A stretch of 64,000 nucleotides of DNA from an uncultured beta proteobacterium (GCA_903928055.1 CAIYPG010000056.1:3917-67916), one strand, 5' to 3'; positions 53,732 through 64,000 are shown, numbered from the stretch's first letter. Numbers and translations: made by a program. The notes: generated by a model from the letters alone, not told the origin.

Positions 53732-54526
53732 ATGTCTGACGGATCACAATCCACACGGGTCGTACTGTCCTACGCGAATCAGATCGCCAAGGTGCTCGTG
53801 TCATTCCCCGAGAAGCGCAATCCGATCGGGACGGAAACCGCTACCCTAATCGGTGACAAGTTGGCCGAAGCCGAAGCCAACCCAGAGGCCAGGGTGATCG
53901 TTATCACCGGAGACGGCGACAGTTTTTCGTCAGGCGGAGATCTTCGGGAATTTCTTGCCACGACCTCCGCCCTGCCATCTGAGCACTGGGAGACCGGTGG
54001 CCCATGGGGAAGGCTTTACACGCAGCTTCGTTCCGTGTCCAAACCTACAATTTGTCGCGTGCATGGGCCGGCTATGGCCGGCGGATGCGGCATCGTTGCC
54101 TCCTGCGATTTCGCCATTGCATCGGATATTTCCACATTTGCGACACCGGAAGCAAAGATCGGCCTATTCCCGCTGTTCATTCTTCCTTCGCTGCTGCGTG
54201 CAATTGGAAGACGGAACGCCCTGGACATGGCATTGACGGGCCGCGTCGTAGAAGCCGCAGAAGCAGCCCAGATGGGCCTCATCAATCGCAGTGTTCCCTT
54301 CGCTGCGCTTGACGGCGAAGTCGACAAACTCGCGAAACAGCTAGCCTCAATCGGACCATTGACGATGAAAATGGGGAAGCGCGCCTTCAATGAGATCGCA
54401 GATATGGATTTTGCGCACGGCATCGAAACGGCACGCGCTCTGCGCGTACCCTTCATGGGCTCCCCAGAGCTGCAACAGGGCATAGAGCGATTCTTGACCA
54501 AGTCCGCCACCAAAGTAAAAGCCTGA
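53732..54526 (+). CDS. enoyl-CoA hydratase/isomerase-family protein
   Basis: ..VIVITGDGDSFSSGGD..VHGPAMAGGCGIVASCDFAI.. crotonase fold; aaggag RBS. Confidence 0.85.
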   Translation: MSDGSQSTRVVLSYANQIAKVLVSFPEKRNPIGTETATLIGDKLAEAEANPEARVIVITGDGDSFSSGGDLREFLATTSALPSEHWETGGPWGRLYTQLRSVSKPTICRVHGPAMAGGCGIVASCDFAIASDISTFATPEAKIGLFPLFILPSLLRAIGRRNALDMALTGRVVEAAEAAQMGLINRSVPFAALDGEVDKLAKQLASIGPLTMKMGKRAFNEIADMDFAHGIETARALRVPFMGSPELQQGIERFLTKSATKVKA

Positions 54527-54575
54527 CCAGTCCAGTGCACTTCGAGCGCGACCACAGACCACGAATGGAACTCAA

Positions 54576-55547
54576 ATGATACGAAAAGCGTTGTGGACTA
54601 TCTTTGCTACGTGGGCGGCCGTTCTGTCGGAACAGGCGGCAGCGCAAGCGGACTATCCCATTCGTGCCATTCGCTTGGTGGTTCCGTTTGCCCCGGGTGG
54701 ATCGGCGGATCTTGTGGCGCGCGTATTGGCTCAGAAGCTTGGTGAACAGATGCCCGCTGGAATGCTAGTCGAGAACCGCGCCGGTGCAAACATGAATATC
54801 GGAGCGGACTATGTCGCAAAGGCAAGCCCGGATGGCTACACGGTTCTTTACAACACATCGAACATGATCTTCAACATTTCGATGTACGCCACTCTTCCTT
54901 ACGATGTGTTCCGCGACTTCGCGCCGATTACGTTGACTGCGGCGGTACCCCAGGTACTGGTGGTCAATCCGTCCGTACCAGCTTCTAACCTACAGCAACT
55001 TGTGGCATATATCCGTTCCCAGAACGGAAAAACGAACTACGCCTCTGTCGGCGTGGGCGCCATTTCGCACCTCACAACGGTCCTGTTTCTGAATGCCAAT
55101 AAGGCGTCGGCGCTTCATATCCCTTATACGGGTAGTCCCCAGGCTTATGCCGACCTAATAGGGGGGCGCACCCAGTTCTACTTTGCCACCGTGGCCTCAG
55201 CCGTACCGTTTCTGAAAGATAACCGTGTGCGTGCCATTGCGGTCACGAGTCTGGACAGAAGCAAAGCACTGCCCGATGTGCCGTCCCTCAATGAAGCCGG
55301 GATGTCCAAATTCGAAGCCACCAGCTGGCAAGGCATGCTCGCTCCTGCCAAAACTCCTCCGGCCGTGATTACCAAATTGAACGCGGAAACTCTCAAGGCA
55401 TTGAAGAACCCAGATCTTCTCAAACAGTTTGATTTTTACGGCACTGTGCCGCTGGGGTCAACGCCGACAGAATACGGCGAATACATGAAGTCTGAGAACG
55501 TGAAGTGGGGAAAAATTATCAGAGACGAGCGCATCAGCGCAGAGTGA
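54576..55547 (+). CDS. Bug/TctC-family substrate-binding protein
   Basis: Signal peptide; YPIRAIRLVVPFAPGGSADLVARV..PDGYTV..IPYTGSPQA. Confidence 0.9.
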   Translation: MIRKALWTIFATWAAVLSEQAAAQADYPIRAIRLVVPFAPGGSADLVARVLAQKLGEQMPAGMLVENRAGANMNIGADYVAKASPDGYTVLYNTSNMIFNISMYATLPYDVFRDFAPITLTAAVPQVLVVNPSVPASNLQQLVAYIRSQNGKTNYASVGVGAISHLTTVLFLNANKASALHIPYTGSPQAYADLIGGRTQFYFATVASAVPFLKDNRVRAIAVTSLDRSKALPDVPSLNEAGMSKFEATSWQGMLAPAKTPPAVITKLNAETLKALKNPDLLKQFDFYGTVPLGSTPTEYGEYMKSENVKWGKIIRDERISAE

Positions 55548-62621: not shown

Positions 62622-62641
62622 AGCTTTCGAAAGGACATCCC

Positions 62642-64000
62642 ATGGGTATAGAAGAACAAATCTGCGCGACGCTCTCGCAAGTTCGTTACGAGGACCTTCC
62701 CGAGGCGGCAATTCGCGGCGTCAAGTCGAGCATCCTGGACACCATTGGCGTGATGCTGGTCTCAAGCACCGCTTCTGAGGATTGCATCAAGATGAACGAA
62801 CTAGCCCAGGAGCTGGGTGGCCGCCCGGAAAGCACTGTGATTGGCTTCGGTGACCGGCTGCCAGCACCCATGGCAGCCCTCATCAACGGTGCGTTATGCC
62901 ATCCGCTGGACTACGACGACGTCCATGAAGGCGCTAAAAACCACTCCACAGCACAGACGCTACCTGCGGCCCTGGCAATGGCCCAACGCAAAGGCAAGGT
63001 GAACGGCCGCGACTTGATCACAGCATTGGCTGTAGGCGGAGACTTTTCCTGCCGCATTGCAATGGCGGTCACTGCCGGCCCTACCGAACATGGCTGGCTC
63101 GGTTCGGCCGTATACGGCTCTTTCGGCGCCGCCGCAGCTGCCGGAAAGATCCTTGGCTTTTCCCCTGCGCAAATGAGTAACGCCATCGGGATGGCGTATG
63201 CCCAGACTGGCGGCTCCCGAGAAATGGCCGAAGGCACCTCCTTGCGAGGCGTGAGGGATGGCTTTACTTCCAAAGTTGGGGTGATGTCTGCGCTACTCGC
63301 TGAAAAGGGGCTCACGGGCCCGGGACGCTTCCTGGAAGGTAAGGCGGGCCTTTACAACCTATATTTCCGAGGCAAGTACAACCCAGAGCGGCTCCTTCAT
63401 GAGTTCGGCAAAACCTTCGAGGTGGCTAATGTCAGTTACAAAATCTGGCCGGCTTGCCGTCTGACGCATACCTATGTGGACGCGGCCATCTCCATCATGA
63501 AGGAGCAAAAACTAAGCTACGAAGACGTTAAGGAGGTTCACATTGATGTTAGCCAGTGGGGTAAGGACCTAAGCGAGCCGGCCGAACGACGTCTCATACC
63601 CAAGACTGGAGTGGAAGCCGGCGACAGTATGCAGTTCACTCTAGGTCTGGCCATGGTGCATCAGACGGTTAAGATTGAGCATTTCACCGATACCGCGATT
63701 AAGGACGAGCGCGTCTTGTCTTCAGCTAAGAAAGTGACTCACCATTTCAAGCCGGAACTGCGCGCCGCGGACATGACCCCAGGAGATGTGACCATCAAGA
63801 CCATCCACGGCGGGGAGTTCAGAAAGCGCGTGGAGTTCGCCCCCGGCAGCCCGCAAAATCCGCTGAAAGAAGGCGCGTTGGAGGAGAAATTTCTGGATTG
63901 CCTGACTTACGCAGCCAAGCCCATTAGCAGGCAAAGGGCACAGCAGCTAATAGACAACATCATGAACCTGGAAAAACAGGAAACAGTGGAGAGCATCATT
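62642..64000 (+). CDS. MmgE/PrpD-family protein; 3' end runs off the window
   Basis: Own translation: MGIEEQICATLSQVRYEDLPEAAIRGVKSSILDTIGVMLVSS..HPLDYDDVHE... Open for all 453 codons to position 64000; aagga RBS. Absent from the ORF track because it has no stop codon. Confidence 0.85.
   Translation, partial: MGIEEQICATLSQVRYEDLPEAAIRGVKSSILDTIGVMLVSSTASEDCIKMNELAQELGGRPESTVIGFGDRLPAPMAALINGALCHPLDYDDVHEGAKNHSTAQTLPAALAMAQRKGKVNGRDLITALAVGGDFSCRIAMAVTAGPTEHGWLGSAVYGSFGAAAAAGKILGFSPAQMSNAIGMAYAQTGGSREMAEGTSLRGVRDGFTSKVGVMSALLAEKGLTGPGRFLEGKAGLYNLYFRGKYNPERLLHEFGKTFEVANVSYKIWPACRLTHTYVDAAISIMKEQKLSYEDVKEVHIDVSQWGKDLSEPAERRLIPKTGVEAGDSMQFTLGLAMVHQTVKIEHFTDTAIKDERVLSSAKKVTHHFKPELRAADMTPGDVTIKTIHGGEFRKRVEFAPGSPQNPLKEGALEEKFLDCLTYAAKPISRQRAQQLIDNIMNLEKQETVESII

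Follow-up and report, generated by a model that had tools for sequence, protein, structure and literature searches.

To our knowledge, only four activities are known for the MmgE/PrpD family, which has tens of thousands of members. One of them belongs to the itaconate/methylsuccinate cluster of Pseudomonas aeruginosa (PA0878-PA0883) and Cupriavidus necator, in which a PrpD protein, the (S)-(R)-methylsuccinate isomerase, tailors a free branched dicarboxylate before coenzyme A (CoA) activation; the characterised enzyme is inactive on CoA esters, is proposed to use a Tyr148/His102 proton pair and has a conserved His152, and its gene always adjoins that of a methylsuccinyl-CoA dehydrogenase (PMC12290011). 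The cluster is mostly betaproteobacterial, and a TctC gene lies nearby in C. necator. Two further systems are the tcuRABC operon of Salmonella enterica, a polycarboxylate operon that combines an FAD_binding_2 flavoprotein with a dedicated uptake component, and the lower leucine/3-hydroxy-3-methylglutaryl-CoA (HMG-CoA) pathway, in which a crotonase and an HMGL-family lyase (LiuC and LiuE) are encoded together. Here we describe a 17-kb gene island in a 64,000-nt window (the whole stretch of DNA analysed) on contig C56 (C56:3917-67916; the contig ends 1,550 bp beyond the window) of a metagenome-assembled genome (MAG) of a lake betaproteobacterium (G000; 3.76 Mb, 92.5% complete, 2.5% contamination). 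The island holds three MmgE/PrpD genes (PrpD1-PrpD3) and four genes for periplasmic TctC receptors (TctC0-TctC3) in two divergent operons. The reading that we favour, at about even confidence, is that the island is restricted to one genus, was probably acquired horizontally and serves the catabolism of an imported organic polycarboxylic acid (or of a few isomers or congeners of one) in two stages, on free acids through the plus-strand operon and on CoA esters through the minus-strand operon.

Pfam annotation recovered every plus-strand gene from 53732 to the window end, in the order and on the strand given by an earlier reading of the window made from its sequence alone (the sequence-only reading), and intergenic gaps of 20-75 bp agree with the short gaps reported there. 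That reading had the plus operon continuing past the window. When the full frame was read past the window end, PrpD3 proved complete (454 aa) and the last gene, with its stop 6 bp beyond base 64000, so that the plus operon ends there; a convergent GntR/HutC-type regulator gene (GntR and UTRA domains) follows downstream. The plus-strand string therefore stands as first described, but it is only part of the unit, since the divergent CoA-stage operon upstream (48129-53506, minus strand) and the regulator downstream had been left unlinked to it. The best start for PrpD2 is a GTG at 58668, five bases after an AAGGAG site. The features are as follows.

48129..49109, minus strand: TctC0, periplasmic TTT/Bug solute receptor, last gene of the minus operon (Pfam TctC, 6.5e-77)
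49178..49951, minus strand: ECH0, crotonase fold, PaaG-like (isomerase) type (Pfam ECH_1, 2e-61)
49967..52099, minus strand: fused ADP-forming (NDP-forming) acyl-CoA synthetase (Pfam CoA_binding_2, Succ_CoA_lig, ATP-grasp_5)
52158..53102, minus strand: HMG-CoA-lyase-family lyase (Pfam HMGL-like)
53105..53506, minus strand: Cupin_7 (ChrR-type cupin) metalloprotein, first gene of the minus operon, start ATG at 53506 (Pfam Cupin_7, 1.2e-22)
53573..53625, no strand: conserved block, candidate promoter/operator, in the 225-bp divergent intergenic region, containing TTGACA and AATCAATATAGTATAG
53732..54526, plus strand: ECH1, crotonase fold with a single catalytic Glu, facultative member (Pfam ECH_1, 1.2e-45)
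54576..55547, plus strand: TctC1, periplasmic receptor, core member (Pfam TctC, 1.4e-62)
55603..56571, plus strand: TctC2, periplasmic receptor, facultative member (Pfam TctC, 2.7e-63)
56641..58059, plus strand: PrpD1, MmgE/PrpD family, Arg-variant type (Pfam MmgE_PrpD_N and C)
58134..58580, plus strand: SnoaL_4/NTF2-fold protein (Pfam SnoaL_4, 1.1e-20, 74 bits)
58668..60092, plus strand: PrpD2, MmgE/PrpD family, separate clade, frame open from 58611 (Pfam MmgE_PrpD_N and C)
60140..61123, plus strand: TctC3, periplasmic receptor, core member (Pfam TctC, 2.9e-66)
61176..62621, plus strand: soluble FAD_binding_2 flavoprotein of the fumarate-reductase/TcuA/KstD superfamily (Pfam, 5e-50)
62642..64000 (end 6 bp further), plus strand: PrpD3, MmgE/PrpD family, Arg-variant type, last gene of the plus operon (Pfam MmgE_PrpD_N and C)
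47194..48108, plus strand: SMP-30/gluconolactonase-like (SGL) protein at the edge of the low-GC block, sharing its low GC (Pfam SGL, 6.9e-47)

From this gene content we infer the following steps, their order, the role of the regulator and the kind of substrate. Sec-exported TctC receptors would pass the substrate to one of about four TctAB permeases encoded elsewhere in the genome. On the free acid, the PrpD proteins would perform enolate-type chemistry beside a carboxylate (epimerisation or isomerisation, hydration or dehydration, or decarboxylation), PrpD1 and PrpD3 as putative ancient sister paralogues with an Arg-rich variant site and PrpD2 as a separate, Cys277 type. The NTF2-fold protein may serve as a beta-eliminating dehydratase or isomerase resembling BaiE and scytalone dehydratase, and the soluble flavoprotein might add or remove a C=C bond. 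In the second stage, the ADP-forming acyl-CoA synthetase would activate the acid produced by the first, the PaaG-like crotonase (helped by ECH1 where present) would isomerise or hydrate the CoA ester, and the HMG-CoA-lyase-family enzyme would cleave it to acetyl-CoA and an oxo-acid, which the translationally coupled cupin metalloenzyme may process. Both promoters are probably controlled by the adjacent GntR/HutC regulator.

As proposed, this route shares with the itaconate/methylsuccinate cluster the tailoring of a free acid ahead of CoA activation, then hydration and lyase cleavage to acetyl-CoA and an oxo-acid. The island differs from that cluster in having three PrpD proteins, none of them with the Tyr148/His152 pair, and a soluble FAD_binding_2 enzyme instead of an acyl-CoA dehydrogenase (none was found by Pfam annotation of both operons); an ADP-forming synthetase takes the place of the family III CoA-transferase, crotonases that of the MaoC hydratase and an HMGL-family lyase that of the Ccl lyase, while the NTF2-fold protein and the cupin are additions. 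Unlike tcuRABC it has neither TcuB nor TcuC, and the fumarate-reductase-type Arg/His residues of its flavoprotein are mostly replaced. In contrast to the LiuC/LiuE pathway it encodes no carboxylase or acyl-CoA dehydrogenase, and its crotonases are without the two-Glu site. Neither the family libraries nor the literature searched yielded a characterised pathway with the gene set of the island, in line with the statement of the sequence-only reading that the string matches no known pathway.

To establish how well the island is conserved, the window was compared with three MAG loci (L003, L004 and L005, from a scan of a genome collection with PrpD2) and with three metagenome contigs (from a scan with PrpD1; locus L052 is among these). 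The island is present in four of the 11 species of one uncultured lake genus, that of the window, and these are the species richest in PrpD. Synteny mapping showed an invariant core of TctC1-PrpD1-SnoaL-PrpD2-TctC3-flavoprotein (70-83% amino-acid identity) wherever contigs reach, and PrpD1 adjoins the SnoaL gene in all seven loci, including the three metagenome contigs. TctC1 and TctC3 are kept in L003, L004, L005 and L052, an 82% orthologue of TctC0 occupies the same position in L003, and the cupin has orthologues of 79-89% identity in L003 and L005. Two members are facultative: ECH1 was found in L005 and L052 and is absent from L003, and TctC2, also absent from L003, was found only in the window and L005. 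In L003 a PrpD3 orthologue (67%) has its place in the minus operon, flanked by ECH0 and the synthetase, with the rest of both operons retained, which argues that the two operons form one functional unit. The SnoaL, cupin and regulator genes are single-copy in the genome and specific to the island.

The island genes are under strong purifying selection, with dN/dS of 0.03-0.07 where it could be computed and dS saturated (window versus L005). Pseudogenised paralogues, which the sequence-only reading had named as evidence that would overturn it, were not seen: the PrpD genes have intact, full-length frames and are kept in the orthologues, and together with the low dN/dS this shows that they are not pseudogenes. 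Within the 225-bp region that separates the divergent operons, the window and L005 (at about 500-550 there) share an identical block of about 50 nt despite saturation of their synonymous sites; no copy of it was found in L003. From its conservation and position, the block is a candidate promoter plus GntR operator. A promoter and terminator scan gave nothing above shuffled expectation, and a search of the divergent intergenic region for inverted repeats found none.

By their Pfam scores, all three PrpD proteins are members of the MmgE/PrpD superfamily (bits for PF03972 and PF19305: PrpD1, 187 and 64; PrpD2, 153 and 100; PrpD3, 222 and 100; cut-off 32.1), and at 27-32% pairwise identity they are the three divergent full-length copies that had been described from the sequence. 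Their nearest solved relatives are cis-aconitate decarboxylases (CAD), iminodisuccinate (IDS) epimerase and Bacillus subtilis ‘IRG1’ (E values of 1e-22 to 1e-38) and not PrpD proper. A quick maximum-likelihood tree covered 38 of the genome's paralogues together with the orthologues and E. coli PrpD; it joins the clades of PrpD1 and PrpD3 as sisters (SH-aLRT 93), places PrpD2 apart from them with a 62% paralogue on contig C147, and puts E. coli PrpD with a different set of the genome's paralogues. The phylogeny against characterised enzymes that the sequence-only reading had proposed is therefore realised in part, in that two PrpD lineages are placed with E. coli PrpD as the sole characterised member.

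Active-site residues were mapped from HMMER alignments to IDS epimerase and CAD and from the family alignment, using the site lists of PMC6789909 and PMC12290011 (hCAD numbering is used below; His90, Asp/Glu93, His103, His159, Lys207 and Lys272 correspond to H85, D88, H99, H150, K198 and K266 of IDS epimerase). The three proteins share with IDS epimerase (2HP0/2HP3), B. subtilis ‘IRG1’ (7BRA) and mammalian CAD (6R6U) the same fold and His90, Asp/Glu93, His103 and Lys272, which are kept in all three. They differ from IDS epimerase and CAD in the loss of His159 (His150 of IDS epimerase), replaced by Phe in PrpD1, Ile in PrpD2 and Leu in PrpD3, and of the Tyr (Tyr145 of IDS epimerase) that acts as second base in both IDS epimerase and methylsuccinate isomerase; Thr97, His277 and Tyr318 of CAD are not conserved either. 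Lys207 is retained in PrpD2 and is Arg in PrpD1 and PrpD3, which also carry Arg in place of the K-P-x-H motif's His and have a new His two positions ahead of the conserved Trp. Thus PrpD1 has H-D-x-H, His-Pro-Trp and Met at 277, and PrpD2 has H-E-T-H, Gln at the KPxH His and Cys277; PrpD3 shares Cys at 277 with PrpD2 and IDS epimerase. Each pattern is conserved in all orthologues.

Four activities were considered for these proteins, of which the sequence-only reading had correctly named three and omitted the (S)-(R)-methylsuccinate isomerase (PMC12290011). As 2-methylcitrate dehydratases they score 27-44 bits against a cut-off of 950 (NF042438) and 32.5 against 575 (NF006943). Of the eight mutationally validated hCAD residues (D93, T97, H103, H159, K207, K272, H277 and Y318; PMC6789909), PrpD3 keeps only D93, H103 and K272, with Val, Leu, Arg, Cys and Ala at T97, H159, K207, H277 and Y318, and PrpD1 and PrpD2 differ at most of the eight. 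As an IDS epimerase, PrpD3 has Thr at Tyr145 and Leu at His150 (HMMER alignment to 2HP3). At the published positions of methylsuccinate isomerase, the family alignment gives Phe, Val and Thr for Tyr148 and Phe, Ile and Leu for His152 (PrpD1, PrpD2 and PrpD3, respectively). On these residue, score and context tests, none of the three has the defining features of any of the four characterised activities; the active-site comparison, also suggested by the sequence-only reading, sets PrpD1-PrpD3 apart from the characterised enzymes compared.

An HMMER search with PrpD3 returned 19,092 related representative clusters. Among the nearest 150 of these, Arg occupies position 207 in 66, of which 61 are also without His159, and the canonical Lys207 plus His159 pair occurs in only 17; His103 (143), Lys272 (147) and Cys277 (126) are near-invariant. 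Since the variant is so frequent among the nearest clusters, it points to a broad family branch without a characterised member and not to a peculiarity of the island, and as judged from these alignments the catalytic set published as universally conserved across the MmgE/PrpD family does not hold for a large branch. A bolder proposal, which we regard as rather doubtful, is that PrpD1 and PrpD3 exemplify a large catalytic branch that has never been characterised (Arg207, no His159, and His103, Lys272 and Cys277 kept). Acting with the NTF2-fold dehydratase and a flavoprotein independent of TcuB, they would convert a natural freshwater polycarboxylate, such as a branched or alicyclic carboxyl-rich acid of the dissolved organic matter type, by a new sequence of reactions, and the island would count among dozens of modules through which this lake genus specialises on acids of that kind. 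In its high-GC part the window holds one more MmgE/PrpD paralogue, the fourth and a very divergent one (20627-22081, minus strand), in which Asp93 is replaced by Leu, His159 by Arg, Lys207 by Thr and Lys272 by Arg; its terminal branch (2.46) is the second longest in the tree, and only that of E. coli PrpD (2.57) is longer.

The gene between PrpD1 and PrpD2 encodes a protein whose structural model (pLDDT 90.8) has as its top Foldseek matches BaiE 7-alpha-dehydratases (1e-8, TM 0.74-0.78), a putative scytalone dehydratase, Rv3472, ActVI-ORFA and LinA. Its invariant residues are D23, H74, H78, R107, R110, R124, R128, Y18 and Y111. The dehydratase-like fold matches, taken with the invariant Asp, His, Arg and Tyr, point to a role in beta-elimination or isomerisation of an acidic substrate, and on the model the protein is likely a beta-eliminating dehydratase or isomerase. 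It is rare: only 14 sequence clusters (65% identity or more) were found among 5.8 billion proteins, a protein atlas gave only generic SnoaL clusters, no close relatives were found among 400 sampled Burkholderiales genomes (these counts, like those for the flavoprotein homologues, include one unpublished genome, G205, which contributes to the counts alone), and distant homologues (27-36%) in three other Burkholderiales genomes showed no synteny with the island. The SnoaL and PrpD1 orthologues are confined to the one genus, plus the metagenome contigs.

For the flavoprotein, TcuA is the best named NCBIfam match, but both equivalog cut-offs are missed (NF006130, 200.8 bits against 369; TIGR02485, 100.9 against 372.6), and in the genome (92.5% complete) the best match to the TcuB/CitB model TIGR02484 is 34.7 bits against 246.6. 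The structures closest to the flavoprotein are Shewanella flavocytochrome c3 (Fcc3) fumarate reductases (6e-23), urocanate reductase and 3-ketosteroid dehydrogenases; compared with Fcc3, His365 is kept and Arg402, His504 and Arg545 are Val, Thr and Cys (moderate local alignment confidence). The TcuA-like, tricarballylate-type label of the sequence-only reading thus comes down to family resemblance, while its broader idea of a multi-step catabolic system holds in that the island is one conserved, selected multi-gene carboxylic-acid system. Homologues of 45-58% identity in other genera adjoin TctC genes, some near Amdase/maleate-isomerase-like, PRISE-like or PEP-mutase-family genes. The closest one outside the genus (58%; L081, G237:C6, 9900-13733) is flanked by two genes of the arylmalonate-decarboxylase/maleate-isomerase family and several TctC genes, and another (L083) lies beside PRISE-like reductase and PEP-mutase/isocitrate-lyase-family genes. 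No orthologous PrpD genes were found near the homologues in other genera, and for this reason their loci do not identify the pathway.

Among the CoA-stage enzymes, the lyase passes the NCBIfam model PRK05692 (HMG-CoA lyase subfamily; 261.1 bits against a cut-off of 246) and matches solved HMG-CoA lyases at 1e-46 to 3e-56 (3e-56 to 6NDS and 1.5e-53 to human HMGCL); a 54% paralogue on contig C166 of the genome may be the housekeeping LiuE. The synthetase, one of 13-14 paralogues in the genome, resembles the NCBIfam ADP-forming acetate/3-hydroxypropionate/4-hydroxybutyrate-CoA ligase models and falls below their cut-offs. Neither crotonase reaches an NCBIfam equivalog cut-off (PaaG is the best model for ECH0, at 214 bits against 345). 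Read by eye, ECH0 is without both hydratase Glu residues (Ser and Phe stand there) and has the Asp of VPDGG, while ECH1 has Gly and Glu at the positions of rat ECH Glu144 and Glu164, the second Glu lying in TPEAKIG. The cupin carries an HxH...E...H metal-binding motif, and 2 nt separate its stop codon from the start of the lyase gene.

Because many mono- and dicarboxylates are ligands of TctC receptors, the tricarboxylate-type label given by the sequence-only reading is a provisional one. The four TctC proteins of the island all have Sec-type signal peptides and are mutually 34-38% identical; the nearest solved structures of TctC1 are terephthalate-binding proteins (6e-68) and BugE, which says little about its ligand. 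The island encodes no TctA or TctB, and with about 339 TctC genes facing about four TctA genes in the genome as a whole, the island TctC proteins are orphan receptors.

To place the island in its genome, the expansion of these families and the neighbourhoods of 38 PrpD genes of the same genome were surveyed. There are 42 matches to MmgE_PrpD_N, and the TctC count of about 339 (tblastn) is accompanied by 350 first-look candidates in a profile search, the 150 of the 350 that were scored all lying above the cut-off. The resulting density is about 90 TctC genes per Mb, to be read with the MAG contamination of 2.5% in mind; for Rhodoplanes sp. Z2-YC6860, a count of 434 in 8.2 Mb (about 53 per Mb, 6.2% of coding sequences) was called unprecedented (PMC5994714). 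Any PrpD homologue at all is found in only 19% of GTDB species (PMC12290011), and the PrpD expansion is common to several species of the genus (G401, G402 and G408; at least 50 scored matches in several relatives) and a few other Burkholderiales genera (G006 and G015). Active-site residues differ strongly between the PrpD paralogues of the genome.

Similar clusters with TctC, FAD_binding_2 and one to three PrpD genes lie on three further contigs (C162:3317-18759, C18:886-10011 and C42:40-8165), where neighbours include genes for a family III CoA-transferase, a crotonase, HMGL, Crp or LysR regulators, OCD/mu-crystallin and Asp/Glu-racemase-like proteins. They have the same family combination as the island, with orphan TctC receptors and TcuB absent; the island adds the SnoaL_4 gene between two PrpD genes, the cupin-HMGL-synthetase-crotonase operon and the GntR regulator. 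A 143-aa frame between two PrpD genes on C162 had no Pfam match, and a second PrpD-NTF2-PrpD arrangement was not demonstrated. Four things set the island apart: its SnoaL insert, the operon for the CoA stage, the regulator and its confinement to one lake genus. On a further contig (C147:2343-11531), TctC, a PrpD gene (62% to PrpD2), family III CoA-transferase and TctC follow one another, with acyl-CoA dehydrogenase and acetyl-CoA hydrolase/transferase genes nearby; this locus resembles the methylsuccinate cluster, yet its PrpD is without the Tyr148/His152 residues.

Two readings of this recurring arrangement have to be weighed. A PrpD gene directly abuts a TctC gene in 23 of the 38 cases (and lies within three genes of another PrpD in nine), and four of the 11 FAD_binding_2 paralogues are at most two genes from a PrpD (random mean 0.45, maximum 3 in 500 draws). 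The neighbourhood analysis put forward in the sequence-only reading, run here on the window's own genome, hence finds that the grouping of TctC, flavoprotein and PrpD recurs. Because so many PrpD genes abut TctC, as with the methylsuccinate isomerase, the PrpD proteins may act on imported free acids, and by analogy with that precedent (PMC12290011) the recurring pattern favours a two-stage route. The main rival, unlikely on balance and still a serious contender, takes the same adjacency to mean a toolbox of largely independent modules, each a TctC receptor with a tailoring enzyme that channels its own, different small carboxylic acid or stereoisomer to a common CoA trunk or to central metabolism. 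The low identity between the four receptors and the different active-site residues of the three PrpD proteins agree with it, as does the variation of TctC2 and ECH1 between species. It is harder to reconcile with the adjacency of PrpD1, SnoaL and PrpD2, invariant at all loci that reach that far, with the short gaps and the single divergent promoter region with its conserved block, with PrpD3 having remained within the island when relocated, and with SnoaL, cupin and regulator genes that are single-copy and island-specific.

Several points nevertheless weigh against the two-stage reading, or against treating the island as exceptional. The conserved gene order is not fully independent evidence, because all instances come from one genus and three metagenome contigs, and TctC2 and ECH1 are dispensable across loci. 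PrpD2-type orthologues and paralogues elsewhere (61-68%) are plain pairs with TctC only, which fits a collection of separate modules equally well. With no recognisable electron partner and the dicarboxylate-binding Arg/His set of fumarate reductases missing, the flavoprotein could run in either direction and take substrates of another class; with neither crotonase having the two-Glu hydratase site, a hydratase-then-lyase sequence is no simple copy of LiuC/LiuE. Three PrpD and three TctC genes in one operon are also much less exceptional in a genome with about 42 PrpD genes, about 339 TctC genes and several similar clusters. The island is rare and intact, but modules like it are many, and its value is that of a lead for enzyme discovery rather than of a surprise. 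As such it offers three intact, selected and mutually different PrpD proteins in a defined context of receptors, flavoprotein, NTF2 dehydratase, CoA trunk and regulator. That a lake genome of 3.8 Mb carries so extreme a load of TctC and PrpD genes suggests a way of life built around varied small carboxylic acids, which bears on the turnover of freshwater dissolved organic matter.

Two readings with a named substrate fail on membership. In the first, tricarballylate or aconitate would be degraded via itaconate, with a TcuA-like enzyme forming cis-aconitate, a CAD-like PrpD forming itaconate, and activation, hydration and cleavage yielding acetyl-CoA and pyruvate. Each enzyme class has precedent (HMGL-family (R)-citramalyl-CoA lyases have been described), TcuA is the best NCBIfam match of the flavoprotein, and the solved structures nearest to the PrpD proteins include those of CAD. 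The reading is nonetheless very unlikely given the wide shortfall of the flavoprotein from the TcuA cut-offs, the lack of TcuB in the genome, the retention of only three of the eight validated hCAD residues (Asp93, His103 and Lys272) in PrpD3 and crotonases that are not of the itaconyl-CoA-hydratase (MaoC) type; cis-aconitate, moreover, requires no such detour. The second, degradation of methylsuccinate or itaconate (branched C5-dicarboxylates) with one PrpD as (S)-(R)-methylsuccinate isomerase, has in its favour that no other PrpD-family activity is known to be common among Betaproteobacteria and that this one acts on free acids before CoA activation (PMC12290011). We consider it highly improbable, as the required neighbour, methylsuccinyl-CoA dehydrogenase (an acyl-CoA dehydrogenase), is missing from the island, as are a family III CoA-transferase, a MaoC hydratase and a Ccl-type lyase, and the proposed catalytic Tyr148 and conserved His152 are missing in all three PrpD proteins. 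That the genes have no joint function, having accumulated by chance or being copies in decay in a genome crowded with these families, is barely credible: the TctC and PrpD load of the 3.76-Mb genome makes accidental neighbours likely, but all frames are intact, dN/dS is low across saturated dS, the same order recurs in four species and three metagenome contigs, and three PrpD genes are seen where about 0.2 would be expected per 17 kb from the 42 copies of the genome.

The favoured two-stage island coincides with a block of low GC content that runs from about 46.7 kb to the window end (55.9% against 61.8% for the genome, at about the first percentile among the genome's 17-kb windows) and may extend beyond the contig. 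At the left edge of this block, the SGL gene may or may not belong to the unit; the orthologous contigs stop short of its position. At the other side, the regulator is followed immediately by the beginning of an S1/P1 nuclease gene (L002:2197-2466), at the contig end and in DNA of 52% GC.

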